A model generated the notes under the pieces. It did not search any database. It was given only the letters and a program-made list of their open reading frames with translations, and had not been told where the DNA came from. The position numbers and the translations under genes were made by a program. A DNA stretch of 64,000 bases from Yuukianura sp. NJ FZ-2021 (taxonomy: Eukaryota): NCBI GenBank assembly GCA_046563655.1, contig CM102283.1, positions 5,952,001 through 6,016,000 of the forward strand, read 5' to 3'. Positions 7,801-50,900 of this stretch are shown in pieces; position 1 is the stretch's first letter; each line of letters opens with the position of its first letter.

Positions 7801-9194
7801 ACCTTTACGTTTGTGTCTTACGGTTTTTCATGTGTTAGGACACAAAGAGAAAGAATTTGATAGTTTACTTATTAGATGTACTTAATACGACTGTAAGCTC
7901 CACCCTTCGATTTAAGTTTTGGTTTATTCCGAAACATTATAATCTAACACTGTTGTTTTTGTTATTCTACCAACGAATTTTCAGGAGGCTATGGAGGCGG
8001 TGGGTTTGAAGAGAGAGGTGACACTGTGTTCGTAGCAGGACTCCCGCCGACTGCCACGGAACAGGATATTGCGGAATACTTTGGATCCATTGGTATCATC
8101 AAGGTAATACTTTCACTTTCAAAAGTCTACATTGTATATTGAAAATTTAAATATTAATGTGTATATGCTTTTACAGATTGACAAGCGTACAATGAAACCC
8201 AAGATTTGGATGTACAAGGATAAAATGACTGGAAGACCCAAAGGAGAATGCACTGTCACTTACGACGACCCAGATGCTGCCAAGTCAGCCATTAGCTGGT
8301 TTGATCGTAAGCGATCTTTGACTATTTCCTATAGAATTTGATTTAACACTTCTGAAAATGTACCTTAAACTTATGTCCTTGTATTGTGCAGAGAAAGAAT
8401 TTCAAGAAGCCATCATCAAAGTTTCGATTGCCACTCGTGGCAGTTCATTCACCCCAGGAGGCGGTGGTGGTGACCGTGGAGGTTATGGTGGGGGTGGCAT
8501 GGGCCGAGGAGGTGACAGAGGAGGTCGCGGTGGAGGAGACCGCGGCGGTGGTCGTGGTGGGTTTCGTGGAGATTCCGGACCGAAAGATTGTAAGTGTAGA
8601 TTTGGAAGAACTGATTGGTCCTAAGTTGATTTTGGGATTCATTTCATAAGCAGACGGTGGTGGCGGACGTGAAGGAGATTGGATCTGTGCTGACGAGGGA
8701 TGCAAGAATCAGAATTTTGCGTGGAGAATGGAATGCAATCGATGCCGGAAACCCAAGTCAGGTTAGAGTTGAATACTTTCAAAATATTACACTTTCTTGT
8801 ACTTGCCATTCACTTTTACCGTGTTTGATTTCAAATACAGATGATGGAATGGGCGGAGGAGGAGGTGGAGGCGGCGGAGGTTTCCGAGGAGGAAGAGGCG
8901 GTGGTGGAGGAGGATTTCGAGGTAAATAACTTAAAAACAGATTGTAAAGAAAGAAGTAGAATTTTGAATTTTTGTGTTTATCAATTTATAGGAGATAGAG
9001 GAGGTGGACGCGGAGGAGGCAGAGGCGGAGATCGCGGTGGCGGTTTTCGTGGAGGACGTGGGGGTGACCGTGGCGGTCGCGGTGGAGACCGTGGAGGGTT
9101 CAGAGGTGGCAGAGGGGGAGACCGCGGTGGAGGTCGTGGAGGAGTAGGTCCGATGAGAGATGGAAGAGGACCGGAGAGGCCACGCCCTTATTAG
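4833..9194 (+). CDS. caz: FET-family RNA-binding protein (cabeza / FUS-EWS-TAF15 orthologue), ~454 aa
   Basis: Exons 4833-4842, 4987-5073, 5162-5296, 5372-5575, 5653-5698, 6980-7020, 7985-8103, 8177-8306, 8392-8589, 8651-8761, 8841-8921, 8992-9194. G/S/Y low-complexity N-terminus, FET RRM (TVFVAGL...[39 protein letters not shown]), RGG, RanBP2 zinc finger ([24 protein letters not shown]), RGG, C-terminal PY-NLS (RPRPY). Confidence 0.95.
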
Positions 9195-9510
9195 ACACGC
9201 TGATTTTTGTACAAGTTTTGTCCTGAAGATTTCCAGATTTCCTGAGTTAAGCCGTCATCTTGAGATGTTGTTATTATAAAGCAGTTGTCCGCTTATTAAT
9301 ACTTTATAGGCCAATTGTATCTGTGGACTTTATTTATTTATGTTTATTTGGGAGTCTAGCTATTGTATAAACAGTTGCTCTAAAATTTCTATAAGCTTTC
9401 ATAGAGTTAGGGTTGATTAATTTGGAGTATTTGCAAATAAATTGATTTTTACGTTAACTAATTCAATTAAATTAGGTGTAACTTATGACTTTTCATTTTG
9501 ATTAATCTGG

Positions 9511-12500
9511 TTATTGGTCATTGTTTTCCACGTATGCTTCTGGTAGTTCTTCGCTCGTCTGGGTAGCTACATCATCGAACTCGGTGACTGATAGCCTCTC
9601 TTCATCATTTTCAGATTCAGTTGGAATTCCATGAGCTGGAAAATGCTTGTCAGCAGCAGTTTCGTCTTCAGCGTTAGAAAGTGGTGGTGATGCATAGATT
9701 TCTTCTCTGGAAGCATCTACGACTGCGTCGTTGCCTTTGTTCGTCCTCTCTGGTTGACTTACGAGTTCAAATCCGGCGCCTTGTTTGTCCAGCGAAAAGT
9801 CCTCGCTGGATAATTCAGGATAAGTAATTGGCAGTTCGTCTTCATCGGAACCTTTAACTCGTTCTAGCAGAAGTTCGGAATCCGAGGCATCTGATTGGTC
9901 AGTGAACTCCTCAAGCTGGATTCCGTCGGCGGGAGTTTCAACCTCCGAAACGAATTCAAATTCATTCCTAGATTCTGCTTGTGTTTCGCCTTCACGGACT
10001 TCAGATTCAGTGGGAGTTTCAATTTCGGATGAAATTTCGTATTCGTTGCCAGGATACTGAGACGGGGTTGGTTCTTCTGAAACTGATATGTCGTACTCAT
10101 TTGACCTCGCGGGTTGGATTTGACCTTGACTTTCTGCTGAATGTTTGTCAAATGGTGCATAGGAATCATCACCATTGTCATCAGGATAACCGATTTCTAA
10201 TTCTTTCTCGGACCTAAGTTGAACCGATTCAAGTGGAAGTTCTGAGTTGTTAATTTCTGGTGGATCGTTGGACTCCTCAAGCTGAATTCCGTCGGCGGGA
10301 GTTTCAGTCTCCGAAATGACTACAACCTCCTTGACAGATTCTGGAACATACTCATGCTCGATAGGTTCTGGTTCAATTGGTTCGAATTCGGAAACTCGGA
10401 ATTCGTTTTCAGAGGAAGTTGAACGTTGGTCTTCAGGAATTTCGTATTCAGAAGTAGAATATGGCGGATTTTGTTCTTCTGAAACTACTGAACCCTGTTC
10501 TTCATTGACGTTTACAGATTGGGTTTGACCATGAAATTCTTCCACTTCTTTGTCAAATTCAAAGCCTCCACCGGAAGCATCGGAGTAAAGAATTCCTGAT
10601 TCATCGTCGCTGGATGGTTGAGTTGATTCAATTGGACGTTCGGAATCAGTAATTTCTGCTTCATCATTCAATGGTTCAAGCTGAATTTCATCGATAGGCG
10701 TTTCGAACTCCGAAACGATTTTATCCTCCTTGGCAGATTCTGTTAGCGATTCGTCTGGATTAACTTCAGATGCTACTGGAAATTCTGGAACTGAGGAATC
10801 GCTTGGAATGTAGAACTCTTCGTTATCGTCAGGAACTCCTTGCTCGGTTGGAAGTTCGTACGGTTCAGTACTACTTTGGAGTGGTCCTTCCGTGGATTCA
10901 GTGTCGTCTTCTACTATTACTACTTTCTCTGGTTCAGTTTGACTTTGACCTTCAACTTCTGCTGGGTCTTTGTCATATGAAATTTGATCACTGGAAAAAT
11001 CAGGATAAGAAATTGCTGCTTCAGGATCGCTGGAAGGTAGAAATGGTTGCTCAGATTCGGAAAATTCTGTTGGCTCATTGAACTCTTCGACCTCCGAAAC
11101 ATTGACGAATTCTGGAATTCTTTGGTCATCATCGGTTTCAAATTCCGTTGGAAATTCTGGAACTGAGAAATCGCTTGGACTGTAAGATTCTTCGTCGATG
11201 ACAACTGTATCTTCAGGGACTTCTGCCTCGGAAGGAATTGCTGGGAGGTAAGTTTCTTCTTCTGGAATTATTGCGTCCTCGTCCTCGGAATTTTCAACTC
11301 GGGTAGGACCTTCAAATTCTGCTTCGTCTTTGTCCAACTGAACTTCCCCTCCGGAAGCTTCAGTGTAAGCAGTAGCTGGTTCATCATCATTGGAAGGTAG
11401 AGCAGGTTGGAATGGAAGTTCGGAATCAGAAGTTTCTGCTCGGTCATAGACTTCCTCAAGCTGAATTTCATCGGCGGGAGTTTCAATTTCCGAAACGACT
11501 TCAAACTCCCTGACGGTTTCTGTCATTTTCTCGTCTTCATCAGGATAACCACTTGCTAATTCATCGTCTCCGGAACGTTCAGTTGATTCAAGCAGTAGTT
11601 CGCCATCAGAGTCTGGAATTTGAATAGATGATTTAATTCCTCAAGCTCTGAAATTACTTTAAACTTTTTAACACATTCTGCGGTAAACACTCACCCTCAT
11701 TGGCTTCTGCTTCCATTGGAAATTCTGGAACTGGGAAATCGTCTGGACTCTGGAACTCTTTGTTAGCGACAGTACTCTCGTGCTCTGAAAGAATTTCGAA
11801 TTCAGTACTGCTAGAATGTGGTGGAACGTAGATTGCTTCTTCTGGAACTACAACTTCGTCTTCGTTATTCTCCGATCTTGTTTCGGCTTCAATTTCAAAT
11901 TCGGGTTTTTTGTCAGTCAAAAAGTCCTCCCGGGAACCATCCGGATAGCCAATTGCTGCACCGTCTTCGCCGGAAGATTGAACTGCTTCAAATGGAGGTT
12001 CTGAATCGGATATTTCGGCTGGGTCATTGAACTCCTCGACTTCGGAAACGACTTGAAACTCGTTGGCAGATTCTGGCAGAGTTCCGCCATCATCGGTTTC
12101 ATATTCCGTGGGAAATTCTGGAACTGAGAAATCGTTTGAGTTGTTGAATTCCTCTTTCACGTCAACTGGATCTTCAGGAATTGACGAATCGGAAGGAATT
12201 TCCTGGAAGTAGACTTTTTCTTCTGGAGTAATTCTGTCATCTTCCTTTGAATTTTCAAATTGAGCTTGACTTTCAAATTCTGCTGCGCCTTTGTCAAACT
12301 CAACGTCTCCACTGGGAACGTCAGCATAAACAATTGGAGGTCCATCATCGCTGGCAGCTAGCGTAGGTTCAAGTGCAATATCGGGGTCATAAATTTCTGC
12401 TGGGTCATAGACGTCCTCAAGCTTGGTTGGATCGGCAGGAGTTTCGACTGAATCTGAGATTTCGGTTGGGTCATTGAACTCTTCGACCTCCGAAATGACT

Positions 12501-15500
12501 TCAAACTCACTCTCAGATTCTGGTAACGTTTCGACCTCATCAGGAGCAGGATAGGCAATTGGTTCGTCTTCACCAGAAGGATGAATTGGTTCAAGTAGAA
12601 GTTCGGAATCTGAAATTTCGTTAGGATTTGTTTAAATTTTTTTTAGCTCTGAAACGACTAAAACCTCTTTGACAGATTCTGGTAAACTCTCACCCTCATT
12701 GGCTTCGGATTCAATTGGAAATTCTGTGGTTGGGAAATCGTCTGGACTGTGAAACTCCTCGTTAACGTCAAGAATTTCGTGCTCAGAAGGAATTTCAAAT
12801 TCAGCACTACTAGAATGTGGTGAAATATAGATTTGTTCTTCTACTAGGTCGTCTTCATTCACCACTTCCGTCTCCGTGTCACCTCCATGTTCAGCTTGCT
12901 TGTCAATTGAAAAGTCATCGCTGGAAGCCCATGTATAGCCAATTCCTGGACCCCCTTCATCGGAAGAGTGAATTGGTCGCAATGGAAGTTCTGAATCGGA
13001 AGCTTCTGATTGGTCAACGAACTCCTGGACTTGAATTGCGTCGGCGGGAATTTCAACCTCCGAAACGATTTCAAGCTCCTCGGCAAACTCTGATGGTGTT
13101 TGGTCCTTATCAGCTTCCGATTCAGTTGGAACTACTGGAATTGGGAAATCGTCATCAGTGGATGGTGAATGTTCGGCAGGAATTTCATACTCAGCACTTG
13201 AATACGGTGGTATCTTTTCATCTTGTTCTTCTTCTGGAATTGCTTTATCTTCTTCATTAAAATTTTCAAATTCGGTTTGACCTTGAAAATCTGCTGGCTC
13301 TTTCTCATACTCAACGTCACCACTGGAAACATCAGGGTAAACAAATACCGATTCCGCTTCGTCGGAGGGTTGCGCTGTTTCAAATGTAATTTCGGAATCA
13401 GAAATTTGTGGTAGGCCATTGACCTCATCGAGCCGAATTCCCTCGGCAGGAGTTTCAAACTCCGAAACGATTTCAACCTCCTTCAAAGGTTCTGACAGCG
13501 TTTCACTTTCAGATTCACTTGAAAATACTGGAACTTGCAAATCCCTTTGACTGTACAACTCCTCTTCGACGTCAGGAATTTCGTGTTCAGTAGTAGAAGG
13601 AGATTTTACGTAGATTTCTTCGTTCGGAATAACCGTGTCGCCGTCGTTTTCTGTCTCCGATTGTGCTTGAACGTTAAATTCTGATTGTTGTTCGTCAAAT
13701 CCAAGCTCCCCCTCATCGCCAGAAACCTCTCCAGGATAAGCAACTGCTAGTTCGTCTTCATCAAGTTGAATTGGTTCAAGTGGAAGTTCGGAATCGGCAA
13801 TTTCTGCTGGGCCATTGAACTTCTCAACCTCCGTAACGACTTCCAATTCCTTGACAGATTCCTCCGCTTTTTCGTCATCATTGGCTTCAGATTCGATGAG
13901 AAATTCTGGACCTGCGAAATCGTTCGAAAGCAAGAATTCTTCCCTGACGTCTACTGAATCGGCAGGAACGTCTGCAGGAATTTCTGGGAAGTAGACTTCT
14001 TCTGTTGGAGTTATTCTGTCCTCTTCCATTGAATTTTCAAATTGAACGTGACTCTCGTATTGTGCTGCGTCTTTACCAAACTCAACATCTCCACTGGGAA
14101 CGTCAGTATAACCAATTGCTGATCCAGCGTCATTGGCAGCTAGAGTCGGTTCAAATGGAAGTTCAGGGTCAGAAATTTCTACTGGGTCATAGACGTCTTC
14201 AAGCTGGATTGGATTGGCGGGAGTTTCAATTTCTGAAGCAACTTCAAACTCTTTCGTAGATTCTGGTAGCGTTTCGACCTCATCAGGAACAGAGTAAGCA
14301 ATTGGTACTTCGGCTTCAGAATCTGAAGGAATTTTGGACAAGTATTCTTCTGGAACAATCTTGGCGTCCTCCTTCTCATTGGAATTTTCGAATTGGGTTT
14401 GACCTGAAGATGCTGCTGGTTCTCTGTCAAAGTCAACGTCTCCACTGGAAACATAAGGATAAGGAATCGCAGGTTCATCGTCACTGGAAGGTGGACGTGG
14501 GTCAAATGAAGACTCGGAATTTGTAAGTTCTGTGGGAATTCCATAGGCGGGAGTTTCGATCTCCGAAACAACTTCAAACTCCTTGACGACTTCCACTGGA
14601 ATTTCCGATTCTGAATCAAAGTTGTCCGGTATGGTCAACTTTTCTTCAATTCGAACATCAACATTTTTGAATTTTTCGTCTGGATATCGTTTTGGTTCAA
14701 AAATTTCAACGTGCTCGGATTCTGTCACCTTCGGGACTCCATACCTATTCGGTTGTCGATTGAAGGCATTTTCAGCAGTGTCGCTTTCTAAAAATTTGGA
14801 AAGCCTCTCTGAAGTGATTCCGTAGTGGGCCAAATAGCGGTCAAATATTTCTGGTGAAATAGTTGCATGACGTGGTACATGTTCATATTCGACGTTTCTT
14901 CCGCAGTCGCTGAGGTGTGGTGGGACACATCGGCGGTAAATTCTGGAGAATAACTTGTCATCTGGACATGCGATGACAAAAGATTCCAGAACATTTCCAG
15001 ATCCCGAGAGACAAACCAAGTATTTCTTACAGTCTCCTTCGATGTAGAAGAATCCAGGATGCGAACATGCGTTGCTTAAAGTTTTCACTGGTTGAAGACA
15101 ATCCGGGTTAGAATTTAAAATTCCTTCTTTGGAGTCGCGAATCTCCTGTCCGGTTGGAAATGGAAATTCCGTTGATCTTGTCCTGGAGATTTCCTGGAAG
15201 CGACCGAGATCATCTGGATCACGGTTGGATGTACTGGAGAACCTTGATGGATCGGCTGGATTGTTGAAAATGCTGGATGTTCTTGTATCCTCTGGTGTGA
15301 ATTTGGTTCGGATAACCGATTTTTCAGCGGTTACACGACGTTCGAAGACTACTTGCGTATCCCGTTCATTGAAAAGCTGCTGCCGTTGATTAGAAAATAC
15401 TGGAATCGGACCCTGAAAAATTACAAGAATTTGAAGTTAGCACTTGTTATCCGCTTCATTGTTCAATTAGAATTAGAATTGAAACCAAATTCTGCAGAAA

Positions 15501-15644
15501 AAGTTAAGATTTTTTGTTCTCTTTTTAAATTTTTAAGGTAAACTTGATGCTTACCGCTAAAACTGGACGTTGAAGTAACGCAACAGCGATGATAAATGCT
15601 GACAGCGCGGAAAAACAAAATCGCGTGGGGTCCATCGTTGACAT
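9511..15644 (-). CDS. Secreted chitin-binding (CBM14/peritrophin-A) protein with very long acidic E/D/P/S repeat region, ~1941 aa if both repeat-derived introns are spliced
   Basis: Exons 15644-15555 (signal peptide MSTMDPTRFCFSALSAFIIAVALLQRPVLA), 15412-12694, 12609-11695, 11612-9511; frames join. Six-Cys domain CSHPGFFYIEGDCKKYLVC...CPDDKLFSRIYRRCVPPHLSDC, then repeats such as EFEVVSEIETPADGIQLEE...EISDSELP. Confidence 0.8.
9520..14640 (-). repeat. Degenerate coding tandem repeat array (units of roughly 100-130 aa with sub-modules)
   Basis: Recurring ES(V/A)KEFEVVSE(I/V)E(TPA/EFN), EISDSELP, YPDVSSGDV(D/E)F, PEFPxExE blocks across the three large ORFs. Confidence 0.9.
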
Positions 15645-16273: not shown

Positions 16274-18043
16274 CTATCCTTGCTTATTTTTTAAATTGGA
16301 CATGGCTAATCCTGCTTTAGAATTTGTAGAACGATTCAGTACTTGACAAATATAGTCAGCAGTAAGAATTAGTTTTCTAAGATCAATTCCTGTTTCGATG
16401 GACATTCCATGGAGCATGTACACTACATCTTCCGTTGCGACATTCCCACTTGCTCCTTTGGCATAAGGACAACCGCCAAGGCCTGCAACGGAAGCATCCA
16501 CTGTTCCAACTCCCATCTATAACGCAATAGATGCATCAATTTTTTAAGAAACAGAATCTAAATCAGGGTTAAATACCTCAAGCGCTGTCAGGATATTAGC
16601 TAAAGCTTGACCGTAAGTGTCGTGGCAGTGAACAGCAACAACATTGGCCGGAACAACTTTCAAAACTTCTTCCAGAACTTTACGCATTGACCCCGGAGTG
16701 CCAATCCCAATTGTGTCACCAAGAGAAACTTCGTAGCATCCCATGTTGTACATTTCCTTTGTGACTTTAGCAACGACCTTGGGATCAATCTGACCTTCGT
16801 AGGGGCAACCGCATACACAAGACACGTAGCCACGGATTCGAAGGTTATGGGCTTTCGCTACTTCAACGACCTATGAACAAGAATGTACTGACTTAGCACT
16901 TTGGAATCCAAAATGTTTCATCAGCAATAGCGTTAGCAATCATAAAATATAGGTCACACTTACTTGTCTAAATCGGTTGAGCGATTCTTCAATGCTACAG
17001 TTTATGTTCTTTTGACTGAAGGACTCAGAAGCTGCACCGAATATAGCAATTTCCTTGACTCCGGCAGCGATCTACAAAAATATCACATTTTGTTCATGAA
17101 ATTACTTCGAAAACGCAACGAAAACGTTTGTTTACCGCAGCCTCTAATCCTTTTGTGTTTGGAACTAATACGGGATATGAGATTCCAGGCTTTTTGTCTA
17201 TGTCGTTAAACACTTTAGCGTGATCAGCCATTTGTGGGACCCATTTGGGAGAAACGAAACTGAAACATAAGTAAAAATACAATATAATTATTTTTGTTCC
17301 AACTAAAACACAAAATTGAATCTTACACGCCGAGAAATCTGTGCAGTACCTGGTAACTTCGATTGACTGGAGTCCTGTTTGTGACAGCCTATTGATGAAT
17401 TCGACCTTACAGGAAGTGGGAACGATAAATGATTCATTTTGCAGCCCATCTCTTGGCCCAACTTCAACGATTTTCACACGTTTCGGTACATTCGGAGTCG
17501 GTACGGCTGAGATTCCGGAAACAACCTTTTCCCATTTATACCTTTGATCAGTAAATATTACAACCACAGGTATTGGTTAATTTGGTTAATTATTAATTAA
17601 ATAAGCACCATTGCGCTTGCGCAGTAAAAGCATATCATCAGCAAGTTGCAACTTGATTATTATGAGCAACAAAACACAGTGTTATTAAGCGAAAGACTAA
17701 AGAATCCAGCAAACTTTTAAGTTTCGTGGTTATATCAATGGAAAAGCTATTGCGCAATTTGTTGAAGTAACTACATAAAAATTAACACTGAAATATCGAT
17801 GCAGCAAAAGCAGAATCTGTGTAGCGGACGTTACGGAATCGTATACGAAAAGATGTTAGTATTGCATGATTCTGAAATCTGAATTAAGCAATCTCTTCCC
17901 TACGCGTTCCTCAATTAATGTATTAGTCGTATTCTACATTTAACCGATTAAATCTTTACCTCAGTAGTGCTGCTGTATCGTCGAGCCACATGTTTGATGA
18001 AGTGGACTGCGGAAATGGGGCGGAAGGATGAGAGTAGTGACAT
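16274..18043 (-). CDS. HMGCL: Hydroxymethylglutaryl-CoA lyase, mitochondrial
   Basis: Exons 18043-17960 (presequence [28 protein letters not shown]), ~17525-17350 (acceptor uncertain), 17259-17136, 17071-16964, 16870-16577, 16516-16274. Motifs [66 protein letters not shown]. Confidence 0.95.
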
Positions 18044-36448: not shown

Positions 36449-44154
<7,706 letters not shown>

Positions 44155-45438: not shown

Positions 45439-47985
45439 TCAGCTTTTAACGAAAAAAATAATTTTCTGTTTCAAACTTGGGCGAAATTTCTCAGATAAGA
45501 CGCGTCTAATAGGCGAGGAAATACGGTATTTGAAAGTTTTCTTAATACAATTATTAACTCGATGAGCACTTTGTCGAATTTGTTCCAAAACATTAAGACT
45601 CATCCGTATTCGACATGTACGATTTCTTTTTTGAACGATTATTTTTGCTTTTTGACGAAAATACCAAGACTGGACAGCCTTAACTATTCTGGCGTTGAAA
45701 GCAACCTCCTTTACGAATACCAATGCAGATACTGCAATTCCTACCAGAAGTAACAAGAAAATCGTCCCGAACTTTTTAGTTAGCCCCATTGGAACAACTT
45801 TTGCCACTTCCCGCTGGAACTCGTCTTCATCAATTTGAAAACTCTTCTTTCCATCGTACGTTCTAAGCGTTTCCCAGTAGTGTAAAAATCCACCAGTAGA
45901 CAGCGCATCTATATTTGATTTGATGTAAACATTGTCGTACGTCTCTTCCGTAGGAGAAACGACATATCTTTTATCGCTAAACTTAAATTGCTTCATCTCC
46001 ACGTGTTTTCTATTTCCAAAATAAACAGCACTCTTGGCTCCGTTTTCCAAAGTTGTTCTGAAATGAGACAAAAAGATGTCTTCCATGGGCATTGCAAATA
46101 CGGTCTTATTACATTCCTGGATTTCTTTCAAGATGAAGGTGTTTGGATTAATTTTTTCCAGCTCTAATTGCAAATAGTACAGGTCTATCGGAGATAAATC
46201 TTTGGCTGCTGAACAATTCATTCTAGGTCTAGGGTAATCTTTAGGAAATCTGGAATGCTTTTTAAGTCGTAGAGCCATCTTTTTCTTTTCTTCTTGTTGT
46301 TCTTTCGTTAGGCACATGTTCTCTGCGAAAGAATCTGCAAAGTACAGAAGAAGTTCTTGATAGTCACCAACAGTAACGTTAGGATTTTTACACTGCTCTT
46401 TTAGCATCTGAGAGATAGATTTGAAATACTTCCCAAGAATTGAGTAGTTCTTGTCCATCACTTCTTCAAACGTTTCAAGTTTTTGCCAGGAAGGAGCCAA
46501 GGAGAGTTGAGAAGTGAGAGCACTTCTGTAGCCATTGGACAACAAAAGACCAAGGAGCATCATTGGAATGGCCACAACATAGTAGTGGCTACTATTGGAC
46601 AATTCTTTTGTAACTTTGGGAGAAATTTCGAGGAGAGATGCAAAAATGATGAGCCACGGTTTGTCTTGAGATTTAAGTCTCCAGATGAGGATCCAAGTGA
46701 AGGTGAAAACGGCGCTAATTGTTAGAAAGATAACTCCCCATACAGTTAGGTCGAATGCTTTAACGTACATCTCGTATGGATTTTCAGATGTGTATCTCCC
46801 ATCACAAGTGATAAAATTGAACTCCCCGCCGTAAGTACTTGGAATCATTGCAATTGTTAGCGGGAGCATGACTTTAAAGTAATCGTTATAACTCTCTGAC
46901 TGCTCCAGTAGGAAATGAAAAGTAGCCTTGTGGGGGAAGTCTCGATACAGGACAGTATTCGCCGTGTTTAAAATATGTTGGCCTTCCGCATTAAGAATAA
47001 AAAATTTATTGAAACAAGATTCGTTTCCTTGGTTTGCTACGTTTGCTCTAAAATCACCTGGGAATGAAACGGCCAGCGCCGTTTTGTACTTTCCGGTTGA
47101 CAAGAAATTCAGGAGAAGGTACATGAAATGGTAGTTTGAAAAATGGCGTTGTCCTGGATCCAAAAGGACAGAAGGTGGCGGTGCTGATGAGATGCAATGC
47201 CGCGCAACTCCAGTTTCAATTAAGGATCCTACTTTGAAAACTTTTGTATTGTTTTCAAAGTGGAAACGGACCTCCTCCACCCAAACCTTATTATGGATAG
47301 AGCCTATGCCACTTAATTGTGAGATTTCTATGAAAAGTTTAACATAGGAGTTGTACAGCAATTTCTGAGGTTGTACGAGGATGCTTCCGTTAAGCAGCAT
47401 ACGAACTTCGATTACGGTACAACGGCACATATTTGCCAATTCACGCATTATTCGCTCAATTACGTTTTGTTCGATTATTCCAACTACAAATGAATTTTGC
47501 GTTTTGAAGGGACGGTTGTACCACATCAGATCACCAATAGATAGGAGATTGCGTTCGGGATTAGTTAAATCTCCAGAGATCAAGTGTATGTATCGCCAAA
47601 TAAATCCTGAAAACGTGTTAATATGCTCGTTTTTCATAGTTTTGTTGTTATCCATTCCACAGAATACAAAAGCGAAACATTTCACTTTAAGTTGCAGTGT
47701 ATGATTTGTTTCCAATTTTGTAAATCCTGGTCCAGGTGGTTTTGAATCAGAACTGAAAAGTAGTGGAAAGTCGAGTGGTGTATTGATTTGGCATAGTTCC
47801 AAACGATTGCTTCTTTCATAATTCATTGTCAAGAATTCCGTCCAACAACTGTTAAAAAATTTTAAAACTTCCGTATGAATTTGGTCAGAATTTTTTGCAA
47901 CCACATAACTGTGACAAGTTAGAAGAAAACGGACAAACAGGATTAGACTTGCAACAAATTTGGTTTTGTCGAAAATCAACGCCAT
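45439..47985 (-). CDS. Intronless divergent ionotropic receptor (IR/iGluR-like chemoreceptor), ~848 aa
   Basis: Single ORF from ATG 47985; hydrophobic N-terminus, FNFITCDG, M1 (YVKAFDLTVWGVIFLTI), M3-like LLLSNGYRSALTSQL, LETFEEV, GFLHYWE, terminal helix GTIFLLLLVGIAVSALVFVKE. Confidence 0.75.
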   Translation of the reverse strand: MALIFDKTKFVASLILFVRFLLTCHSYVVAKNSDQIHTEVLKFFNSCWTEFLTMNYERSNRLELCQINTPLDFPLLFSSDSKPPGPGFTKLETNHTLQLKVKCFAFVFCGMDNNKTMKNEHINTFSGFIWRYIHLISGDLTNPERNLLSIGDLMWYNRPFKTQNSFVVGIIEQNVIERIMRELANMCRCTVIEVRMLLNGSILVQPQKLLYNSYVKLFIEISQLSGIGSIHNKVWVEEVRFHFENNTKVFKVGSLIETGVARHCISSAPPPSVLLDPGQRHFSNYHFMYLLLNFLSTGKYKTALAVSFPGDFRANVANQGNESCFNKFFILNAEGQHILNTANTVLYRDFPHKATFHFLLEQSESYNDYFKVMLPLTIAMIPSTYGGEFNFITCDGRYTSENPYEMYVKAFDLTVWGVIFLTISAVFTFTWILIWRLKSQDKPWLIIFASLLEISPKVTKELSNSSHYYVVAIPMMLLGLLLSNGYRSALTSQLSLAPSWQKLETFEEVMDKNYSILGKYFKSISQMLKEQCKNPNVTVGDYQELLLYFADSFAENMCLTKEQQEEKKKMALRLKKHSRFPKDYPRPRMNCSAAKDLSPIDLYYLQLELEKINPNTFILKEIQECNKTVFAMPMEDIFLSHFRTTLENGAKSAVYFGNRKHVEMKQFKFSDKRYVVSPTEETYDNVYIKSNIDALSTGGFLHYWETLRTYDGKKSFQIDEDEFQREVAKVVPMGLTKKFGTIFLLLLVGIAVSALVFVKEVAFNARIVKAVQSWYFRQKAKIIVQKRNRTCRIRMSLNVLEQIRQSAHRVNNCIKKTFKYRISSPIRRVLSEKFRPSLKQKIIFFVKS

Positions 47986-50900
47986 TTTTTTTCTCTGAAA
48001 TTTGAACAGATTCAAACCCTCTTCGATTATTTACAACAATCGAAATGTGGAAGAAGAAGGTTTTAATTCCTTATTCAAACTTATTACTGCGACGTTCTCA
48101 CACAATTCGTTCGTATCGTGCCCAAAATTTTTAACACGGATCTCATGTTAACCTTAACCTTATGTTGCACAGAGGCTTCTGTGAAAACTCTAGACTCGTT
48201 GAAAGCTCACGAATTTTTTTGGCAAGTACTATTTAGTAAAACGCTCTGTATATTCACGGCGCGCTTGTTGTCAATTTATAAAGTTTAATATATTATCCAT
48301 TATCTGCTGAGAACATGCAAAAACCATTTCATTCCGTTAATGGAACGAATCCATCTGAAGTGACGAGGGGAGTTATTATTATATTTAAAATCATGATGGA
48401 CTTAAAAAGAAAATTCAAAAAATTCTGTTAGATTGCGATTGCAAGCGGGGATCCAATAAAGTTTTTCTGCTAAGGTGTCTATTTGATGAAACTTTCACTT
48501 TATATATGGTATGTGCCATTTTGACTTCCATGACCTCTTCGCACTTCGCCTCGACTGATAGTAAAATTATTTCATGTGACATTTGAAGTGTTTCGGATTC
48601 AATTTGACTCATCCTGTATCACTTTCTTTTATTCTGTTTGAAGGTAGGCCATAAAAAGAAAGTTGAATAAGTTGTGAGCGTGTCAAAGGCAGCAGGATAT
48701 AGTGGTTAGAACATATCTAGTGTAGAAAGTGTTATTAAGGGAAAGTGTGAAGGCGTGGAAAGTGAAAGTGAGAAAGGGGTGGAGACAGGGGAGGGGGAGT
48801 CCCTTGTTTTGATTTCCCCCGCGTGTCAACTTCCCCCCTCCCTTCCCCTCTTACCCCCAGGGGGAGGGGTGGATTTCCAGCCGAATTAACCCAGAGATTG
48901 CCCAATTTGTAGGATGGAGTTGATTGGGTGGGGGGAGTGGGGGATCCTAAATGGAACTTACTTTCTCTTTCATGGATTTGTCCCAAGGGAGGGAGCGCAT
49001 GAGGAGAAAGCACTCAATTTCCCCGTCGTACTTGTTCTAGTCAGTCTCAATTCAGAATCTGTCGGAGCAGAAAGCCTCAGTGACGATGAGAATCTCAGCA
49101 GCACAAACTTTTAGCTACTTTCTCCGCCGCCTGTCCCACTCACTTTAAAAAAAATACTTCCCTCCCAAAAATTTGTCTCCCTAATGACTCCCGCTTTCCA
49201 CTTGTACTTAAAAGACTTTCCAAAAGGACTTTTAGGAGGATCACATCAAAGGAAACAGGAACGACACACACATGGTTACAATCTACACGCAAACCATATT
49301 CTACTCACACTTTCACTTCACACTTCTCTCCACTTTCACCGCAATCCTCTACTAACCTCACTTTGTAGCAAATAACGTCCTAAAAACTTCCAAATTATGA
49401 ATTGCAAATTAACTCGTTTATTTCTTCTTTAAAAACCACAGTTTTTAAAAGCATGTTTCAATTTACCTTTTATACAAATTTTATGCCATCAAAAATGAAT
49501 TACACGTAATGTACATAAGTAATGTAAGCTTTCATATCAAATTTTGTTTATCCGGGTAAATTTTCAACGTTAATTTCAGAAGGAGGGGTGCCTCCTAATC
49601 GTCAGAATTTTCGGAACCTTTCAGATTCCTTACTTCCGAAGCAATGTTTTTTCAGTGAAAAGTGAAAGTAGAAAAGGGCTAAAAGTTTGAACCACATTTT
49701 GATGGGAAAGTTTTTTCCTCAGTGAAATTAGAAAGATAATTTACTACCAAATAATGTAACATCATGAAATATTGGAAAGAAAATTTTGTTTAGTAAAAAT
49801 ATAAACAAAATTTACAAAAGTATACCGCTAATAATCTTGCATAAAAAAAAGTTTTTGGTGAAAGCAAAAATGCAGGAGCGGGAAATGTGAGATTAAATTG
49901 TGAAGAAATGAGATACATTAACCGTTAATTCTGAAAAATGAAGAAATTACGTGACGCATTGACAGTTAGTTTTGAAAAAATGATTAAATTAAGTGACGCA
50001 TTGATGGCTAATTTAATAAAATTTTGTTCTATTGTATTGTTTGCGTGGATTAATAGAGGAGGAGGAAGTTTATTAATTGTGGCGAGGTGACTGGGCTTTT
50101 GGTCACACAAAGTTGTTCCCTTTAGCGCTTTATTGCATCTTCAACCTCCTCTCAACGGACTTTAATTCCGTCGACTAGGTTCTCAATTAATCATTTTTGA
50201 AAAGAGGGAGTGTTTTGCGTGTTTTTGAAGTTGGATTGAAGTCAATTAGAAATTCATTAGGGAAGATGATGGTGCATTCTAGAGAGAGGGAGATCGGAGG
50301 TATAATTGCAGAGTAAGTGGGGAATAATAGGAGGCTGATTATGGCTGTTCCAAAGGGAGCTATGGGAATTATGGACTTCATCTTCACTACGATTACACTT
50401 CCATTATGTCTCCAGACACTTCCCTTTTGAATCTTCCTCTCTTTTTTGAATCTTCTCTCCTTTTCAACAGTCCATTCTTCCTAGAACTACTTTATTCTGT
50501 CTTTGTTAGGTTAGGTTTGTTCCCCTGGCTACTGTGAATTACAGTTCGTCTTGTAGCGTCAAGGGCCTCAAGAAAATGACTTCCTTAGGTGACAAATGAT
50601 GAAGCTTTTTTTGAAAAAGTCTCCGTTTAACGCTTCATTAAACCAAACTTTTCAAAAGAAGAGTTCTCTCTAACAACGTAATTATGATTATGATGTCTTG
50701 TCAAGTGGTCGTCACAAGGAAGTGGCTTATTCCTCAACGTCTAATTTCAGAATAAAGACATTTTTGAGTAGTAATCTGGCATCTTCTCAACAAAGAGTAA
50801 ACGGCATTTTGAAATGTTTTGTAATGCTTTTCAGGTTACAAGCCCAATTTACCTCAAAAATTAAGAAAACTCACTCAAGTTCACTTTGGGTTCCGCTGAT

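Follow-up and report, generated by a model that had tools for sequence, protein, structure and literature searches.

The origin of new spliceosomal introns is a long-standing question, and individual cases have usually been inferred from orthologues after the signal had faded. Intronization, the conversion of coding sequence into an intron, is an already known mechanism, though one seldom caught; it was reportedly addressed by Irimia et al. in 2008, Roy in 2009 and Zhu and Niu in 2013, and intronization in retrogenes is said to have been studied by Szczesniak in 2011 and Kang in 2012. According to the available part of a 2012 review, cases come from Caenorhabditis, Cryptococcus, Schizosaccharomyces and mammalian retrogenes, and just 29 events are tabulated, the evidence for all of them being indirect (PMC3443670). 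A route to intronization via a premature stop, attributed to Catania and Lynch, is outlined in the accessible sections of two sources (PMC3443670; PMC4484396). Here, we analyzed a stretch of 64,000 nucleotides (nt) from Yuukianura sp. NJ FZ-2021 (GenBank assembly GCA_046563655.1, contig CM102283.1, positions 5,952,001 to 6,016,000 of the forward strand; hereafter the window), in which a minus-strand gene with a predicted chitin-binding domain and a long acidic repeat array contains two candidate introns, I1 and I2, that resemble degenerate copies of the gene's own coding repeat. We put at roughly 60% the probability that both are spliceosomal GT-AG introns that arose from sequence which used to be coding, a reading drawn from the genomic sequence, and as an example of a known mechanism this case is unusually legible.

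Like the known intronization cases, I1 and I2 would be new introns derived from coding sequence with no added DNA, their splice sites arising from a few point changes in codons, and the in-frame TAA of I1 fits the premature-stop route as far as the accessible sections describe it. The locus differs from those cases in that the exonic state survives within the gene itself, in 12 paralogous coding copies, and not in an orthologue, that the intron was apparently copied along with its repeat block, and that the known cases are transcript-supported whereas I1 and I2 are known from DNA alone. Exitrons, as presented by Marquez et al. 2015, are alternatively spliced introns inside coding exons which keep coding potential and have no stop (PMC4484396, in the part available). 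Judged by that part, the two candidates are similar in lying within a long coding exon, in deriving from coding sequence for a disordered region and in having rather weak splice sites, and I1 is likewise a multiple of three; unlike exitrons, I1 carries a TAA and the 82-nt I2 a frameshift, so retention cannot yield a full-length protein. Introns are also reported to be gained by tandem duplication of an AGGT-containing segment, a route said to go back to Rogers in 1989 and Hellsten in 2011 and to include a potato RdRp case. Our locus is comparable in that the change arises within a gene via its own duplicated sequence and the spliced product would lack one repeat element. In contrast to that route, the two boundaries do not repeat a single motif, the intron does not correspond to one duplication unit, and the duplication seems to have multiplied an intron that already existed. 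Some secreted arthropod proteins combine peritrophin-A (CBM14) domains with low-complexity repeat tails, and the product of this gene is like them in its signal-peptide-like N-terminus, single six-cysteine CBM14 domain and long repeat region, and unlike them in its acidic array of about 1650 residues with no match among 1.84 billion representatives. In the available part of a mite study, no sequence signatures of intron creation were found (bioRxiv 10.1101/051292), and the available part of another source lists intronization and changes in repeats as distinct causes of insertions and deletions (indels) (PMC12457776); within these parts of the two sources, a coding repeat unit turned intron is not described.

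From our analysis, the minus strand between 15644 and 9511 reads as one gene, with a joined coding sequence of 1941 codons and zero stops. It is covered by three stop-to-stop open reading frames (ORFs), at 12632-15436 (934 amino acids, aa), 11654-12631 (325 aa) and 9511-11640 (709 aa), of which the second has a frame identical to that of the first, with a single TAA between them, and the third lies in another frame. The gene is broken only at 12693-12610, by this in-frame TAA, and at 11694-11613, by a frameshift; when both segments are excised, 5760 nt are open with no internal stop up to the terminal stop at 9513-9511. The initial annotation had described the chitin-binding ORF as broken at two homologous places and mended in frame by phase-1 GT-AG introns of 84 and 82 nt, and this description was confirmed down to the coordinates.

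The array (D+E 29%, K+R 4%) consists of about 14 divergent units of about 130 residues, each around a core xxLPESxKEFxVVSEVE..., and the 27-codon form of this core, xxLPESxKEFxVVSEVEEFNDPxEIS, is the most conserved part of the unit. We found 14 copies of the core, 12 of them open and in frame, and a stop or frameshift occurs only in I1 and I2. Using blastn, I1 matched the coding stretches 13923-13753 (69.7% over 178 nt, E 4e-22) and 12138-11962 (69.4% over 180 nt, E 7e-24), and it matched I2 at 73.6% over 193 nt (E 3e-31). Both interiors align full length to coding copies, and no DNA has been added, I1 and I2 having 84 and 82 nt against the 81 nt of coding copies. The lesion of I1 is one extra codon, which carries the TAA (12634-12632), and I1 also contains a run of eight A (A8); the lesions of I2 are a +2 and a -1 indel. 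Many substitutions, including changes of Glu to Lys codons, separate the two from the coding copies. The units with I1 and I2 are unusual in that the next core lies just 158-159 nt downstream, so that splicing would remove a redundant core.

The donors and acceptors of I1 and I2 stand at homologous positions, and at both places the coding copies show the codons that were replaced. At the donor place, coding copies read GAT GGC GGA or GAT GAC GAA and the candidates GAG G|GT GAG; at the acceptor place, coding copies read ATA TCC GAT or ATT GCC GAT, and the candidate reads ATT TCA G|AT. The split codons are G|AT at I1 and G|AC at I2. The first reading of the sequence had been right that the interiors still read as coding repeat and that stops and indels are confined to these two copies between open flanks, and the coding copies agree with its view that GAG GGT GAG and ATT TCA GAT supplied the sites and that ancestral-type copies persist in the same gene. 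Its claim of a drift towards AT stood in part: the 3' 33 nt have a G+C content (GC) of 0.21 in I1 and 0.30 in I2 against 0.39-0.61 in the 12 homologous coding copies, but gene-wide the claim failed. We dropped the description of these segments as having the lowest GC in the gene, since the exonic 83-nt windows 13290-13208 (0.289) and 14712-14630 (0.301) are equally AT-rich.

For comparison with local introns we assembled 19 reference introns from the window, 14 from an ABCC gene, four from an HMGCL-like gene and one being the first intron of this gene. The ABCC introns were located by tblastn with a protein query followed by frame- and length-consistent GT-AG refinement. Among the 21 pairs of high-scoring segment pairs (HSPs) examined, one had no intron and six were dropped (the best solution implied 18-117 missing residues); for another, the second-ranked solution (90 nt, no length discrepancy) was used over the first (114 nt, 8 residues short). 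The reference introns measure 59-142 nt (median 86) and have a GC of 0.244-0.344 (mean 0.305), and with 84 nt and GC 0.321 for I1 and 82 nt and GC 0.317 for I2, against 0.44-0.45 in the exons of the gene, both candidates are typical of local introns in length, as had been proposed, and in GC. With a position weight matrix (PWM) built from the reference introns, the donors of I1 and I2 score 6.2 and 7.6, ranking 6th and 1st among the 255 GT dinucleotides of the gene, and the leave-one-out donor scores of the reference introns run from -0.9 to 9.9; both donors are strong. At the second break, the proposed I2 ranks first among 61 frame-restoring GT-AG solutions. I1 carries CTAAC with a candidate branch A 11 nt before its 3' end, and the earlier proposal of CCTAAC as the branch point is conjecture. 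Both interiors hold an internal TTTCAG|AG.

The flanking exons have kept their frame. At least three frame or stop lesions fall in the 166 nt of I1 and I2, and the remaining 5733 nt of the large exons are free of them, a confinement that would arise by chance under uniform spread with a probability of (166/5899)^3, or about 2e-5. The 1003 codons downstream of the TAA offer 414 single-base paths to a stop, and the probability of finding no stop is about 1e-3 at 5% neutral divergence. Between paralogous blocks, including blocks wholly downstream of the lesions and the exon 11695-12609, the ratio of nonsynonymous to synonymous substitution (dN/dS) is 0.26-0.73. The 16 displayed differences in exon 2, counted by hand, fall 4, 6 and 6 times at codon positions 1, 2 and 3; this absence of a third-position bias indicates that the constraint at the amino-acid level is weak.

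We further compared the window with DNA contigs from four public runs, of which X1-X3 come from one sample (organism A), presumably the source of the window, and X4 from a different organism and study; the comparison covers the 32 of 490 contig pieces and the 12 of 86 indels displayed. In all 26 exon-only pieces the net length difference is a multiple of three, and it is non-zero in 11 of them (-21, -15, +6, +6, -21, -15, -15, -21, -18, -15, -6). Several of these length variants recur as the same variant across runs, and three of the pieces with gaps (two are from X4) fall within the last exon, past both lesions. By comparison, five of the six pieces that span I1 or I2 differ by a length that is not a multiple of three (-4, -5 and -5 over I2; +17 and -10 over I1), and one is gapless. 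The gapless piece, from the X2 record 10 contig (11476-11967), reproduces the I2 length of the window independently, which confirms the net +1 frameshift. Contigs of X4 also span the candidate sites, and a substitution at 11616 in other haplotypes and in X4 turns the I2 acceptor from TTCCAG into TTTCAG. That the differences breaking the frame fall in the pieces with candidate introns is suggestive of non-coding islands in a constrained frame.

The initial annotation had described two introns born from the coding repeat. Its repeat origin without added DNA stands, but one birth followed by duplication is likelier than two births. In a tree of the 14 units, built with the intron columns included, I1 and I2 are sisters (ultrafast bootstrap 92; Shimodaira-Hasegawa-like approximate likelihood-ratio test 89), so the phylogeny proposed earlier for deciding between one event and two favors one. 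The protein flanks of the two junctions, residues 794-967 and 1096-1281, are, independently of this tree, reciprocal best matches with 54-55% identity at an offset of about 303 residues. Because the donor and acceptor positions are homologous, the two are sisters and their flanks match best, it appears most likely that the intron originated once and was then copied when the block of about 300 codons around it duplicated.

We infer that I1 and I2 are actually spliced, and the order of events may be reconstructed as follows. The core of one unit would have gained a donor when GAG GGT GAG replaced codons of the GAT GGC GGA type, and an acceptor would have formed where the I-S-D codons read ATT TCA G|AT. 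Splicing would then remove the core cleanly and rebuild the Asp codon, giving ...EANE-D-SELLLEP..., after which the interior, released from coding constraint, could drift to about 32% GC and gather Lys codons in place of acidic ones, a stop and indels that are not multiples of three. Finally, a block of about 300 codons with its intron would have duplicated inside the array, yielding I1 and I2. For this fuller scenario, in which the 27-codon core became a constitutive intron and was then multiplied by block duplication, we consider the odds even. The direction from coding to intron we infer from the 12 of 14 copies that are coding, and at the time of the duplication the segment may still have been coding-competent and only partly spliced.

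Several observations weigh against an origin of I1 and I2 by intronization as proposed. By the PWM, which is built from just 19 sites, the acceptor of I1 scores -2.8, below all 19 references (1.4-13.5), and ranks 223rd among 461 AG dinucleotides, that of I2 is marginal at 2.0, at the low end of the same references, and the proposed I1 comes 7th of 51 frame-restoring solutions at the first break by PWM sum. None of the five listed public sequencing runs is on record as RNA, which by itself is evidence neither way. The divergence p between the interiors of I1 and I2 is 0.25 against 0.18 and 0.26 in the flanking exons, so there is no contrast in rate. We dropped faster substitution in the interiors as an argument, and only the kind of change differs: three gaps of 2 nt each separate the interiors, and gaps of 6, 3, 6 and 3 nt the flanking exon. 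I1 and I2 share no disabling lesion, hence constitutive splicing before the duplication is not demonstrated. Homologues were not found by a protein search with a 1260-aa read-through query among proteins of 693-2205 residues; 748 aa of the product had zero matches among the 1.84 billion protein representatives, the ESM Atlas gave no usable match, and of 96 pattern matches in metagenome contigs none was confirmed. With no orthologue or homologue of the array in these collections, the ancestral exonic state is read from the paralogous copies only. Instead of alleles or orthologues, the divergent contigs could represent paralogues, and as the places of the frame-breaking indels within their pieces are not displayed, the support from contigs is not conclusive.

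Some of these points would suit a gene, or an allele, that is not spliced at all and is truncated at the TAA, the 3 kb downstream being a recently disabled remnant. The weak I1 acceptor and the lack of RNA on record (0 of 5 runs) fit such a truncation; a fast-evolving repeat protein without homologues may be dispensable, and the window is perhaps an unusual haplotype, given that all contigs differ from it at, for example, 9738 and 11390. We nevertheless judge truncation unlikely. A pseudogene would have its lesions spread along the former coding sequence; here, every one of them sits in two homologous GT...AG segments of 82-84 nt with intron-like GC, and the long flanks have none. The codons downstream of the TAA are stop-free despite the many one-step paths, and the exon-only contig pieces from downstream of the lesions, the second organism included, differ by multiples of three only. 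Of similarly low probability, its two forms taken jointly, is removal of the segments in some other way, with other boundaries, notably at the first break, or by a partial, exitron-like splicing in which transcripts retaining I1 would hit the stop and be degraded and the spliced ones would give the full protein. Six frame-restoring GT-AG pairs outscore the proposed I1 by the local PWM, but these alternatives end in AAG or GAG acceptors, measure 126-279 nt and would cost the protein conserved repeat sequence; the sites proposed for I1 are homologous in position to those of I2, which are the top solution for their break. Partial splicing accords with an I1 that is a multiple of three, has a repeat-like first half (ESLPESVKEVLVVSELK) and a weak acceptor, and with the internal TTTCAG|AG of both interiors; weak, part-time sites are expected in young introns, according to the available parts of two sources (PMC3443670; PMC4484396).

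We regard it as highly improbable that the segments are ordinary coding copies whose stop and frameshift stem from errors of assembly or consensus in a hard-to-assemble array. Contigs do join the array in alternative ways (skips of 2380 and 3155 nt and a jump back of 3418 nt), there are sites at which the window disagrees with every contig, and I1 holds an A8 run. Against this, the I2 length, and the frameshift that follows from it, recurs in an independent contig, an altered A8 length would break the downstream frame instead of mending it, and what separates the segments from coding copies is a large number of substitutions (Glu to Lys codons, a 3' third with GC 0.21-0.30) and not single-base errors. 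Least probable of all is an origin from inserted DNA, such as an introner or transposon, or by the AGGT tandem-duplication route. In its favor, the units of I1 and I2 have been reshaped by local duplication or deletion, as the second core 158-159 nt downstream shows; yet the interiors share their ancestry with the coding core of this very gene and are near-equal to it in length (84 and 82 against 81 nt), the rest of the window holds no significant copy of them (best outside match 20 nt, E 0.013), and the boundaries are dissimilar (...AATGAGG|GTGAGAG and ...ATTTCAG|ATTCCGA) where the duplication model requires a match.

Under intronization, the state before (the coding copies) lies beside the state after in one gene, and the point changes that made the donor and acceptor are directly readable. 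If this is true, a single gene holds intact cores, a core with a latent acceptor (12499) and two intronized cores at different stages of decay, and intronization together with expansion of a repeat array would be a route for introns to arise and spread in long repeat exons. If confirmed, it would mean that an intron can spread within a gene merely through duplication of repeat blocks. The locus would be a ready substrate for minigene tests of which substitutions switch a coding core to an intron, and it calls for caution in annotation, as in-frame stops in long repeat exons do not necessarily mark a pseudogene.

The coordinates of the features are collected in Table 1. The product is a probably secreted, very acidic protein with one CBM14 domain and is predicted to bind chitin; its N-terminus, judged by eye, is signal-peptide-like. 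The PF01607 match covers residues 124-178 of the translation of 12694-15436 (minus strand) with E 1.1e-6 and 29.1 bits against a cut-off of 22.1, and the six cysteines of the domain lie within CSHPG...LSDC.

Table 1. Features of the repeat-array gene, with positions in the window
Feature	Position	Strand	Description	Basis
Exon 1	15555..15644	-	30 codons from ATG, hydrophobic signal-peptide-like N-terminus (MSTMDPTRFCFSALSAFIIAVALLQRPVLA)	sequence reading
Conventional intron	15413..15554	-	142 nt, phase 0, GTAAGC...TTTTTCAG	
Large exon	12694..15412	-	N-terminal region, CBM14 domain, first repeat units	open frame
CBM_14 (peritrophin-A) domain	14903..15067	-	six cysteines	Pfam PF01607
Intact coding paralogue of core	13795..13875	-	81 nt, EKAEESVKELEVVTEVEKFNGPAEIA	
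Candidate intron I1	12610..12693	-	84 nt, phase 1, GTGAGA...TTTCAG, degenerate repeat core	
Exon between I1 and I2	11695..12609	-	915 nt	open frame
Coding core copy 12499	12449..12532	-	acceptor-like TCTCAG|AT at homologous place; no GT donor motif of any strength	
Intact coding paralogue of core	12002..12085	-	GTLPESANEFQVVSEVEEFNDPAEIS	
Candidate intron I2	11613..11694	-	82 nt, phase 1, GTGAGT...TTCCAG, degenerate repeat core	
Last exon	9511..11612	-	699 full repeat-array codons, split codon and stop 9513-9511	
Predicted junction peptides of spliced product			...EANEDSELLLEP... and ...EANEDSDGELLLES...	

Units of the array were compared with one another in chunks of 120 residues, a self-blastp of the whole protein having given the identity match alone. 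Tandem Repeats Finder did not detect the array, as its units are too divergent. No paralogue of the gene was found elsewhere in the window, all 12 tblastn HSPs lying inside the gene. The core copy 12499 (12376-12540) is a hybrid, in which a short-type core (EFEVISEVEEFNDPTEISDS) is directly followed by a long-type core tail (VETPADPTKLEDVYDPAEIY), a sign of slippage or unequal exchange within the array.

In the same sample, some short-read contigs connect stretches that lie far apart in the array (9953 to 13109, 10460 to 12841, and 13335 back to 9918), another skips 414 nt (10210 to 10625), and several haplotype-like contigs diverge by 5-14% over 9500-13400. Behind these joins and divergent contigs lies either variation of the array in copy number or structure, or the formation of chimeric contigs between repeats. 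At 9738, 10271, 10291 and 11390, all contigs of at least two of the runs X1-X3 differ from the window base, so that either the window haplotype differs from the assembled one or consensus errors remain. X3 contigs have loose ends at 12970, 13676, 14185 and 15231 that carry GATCGATC-type letters, which look like the GATC sites of a proximity-ligation (Hi-C) library after fill-in and religation.

Scans of the window with Rfam and for tRNAs gave zero matches each. The neighboring ABCC/MRP1-like and HMG-CoA-lyase-like genes are ordinary genes rich in introns. The ABCC/MRP1-like transporter gene (36455-42990, minus strand) has at least 14 short introns (59-103 nt), and its best matches are springtail and insect MRP1, with 51-59% identity over one exon of the nucleotide-binding domain, which points to a source that is probably an arthropod with no close sequenced relative in the collection searched. 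An 863-codon open frame at 45442-48030 on the minus strand matched nothing at E <= 0.001 in a search of proteins of 474-1511 residues. The HMG-CoA-lyase-like gene (16274-17576, minus strand) matches the Pfam family HMGL-like on two exons (E 2e-22 and 2e-8) and has four introns of 60-93 nt. On the plus strand, 7948-9200 holds ORF pieces that by eye read like a FUS/TAF15-like RNA-binding protein, combining an RRM and a zinc-finger-like stretch with long RGG/GGDRGG repeats.

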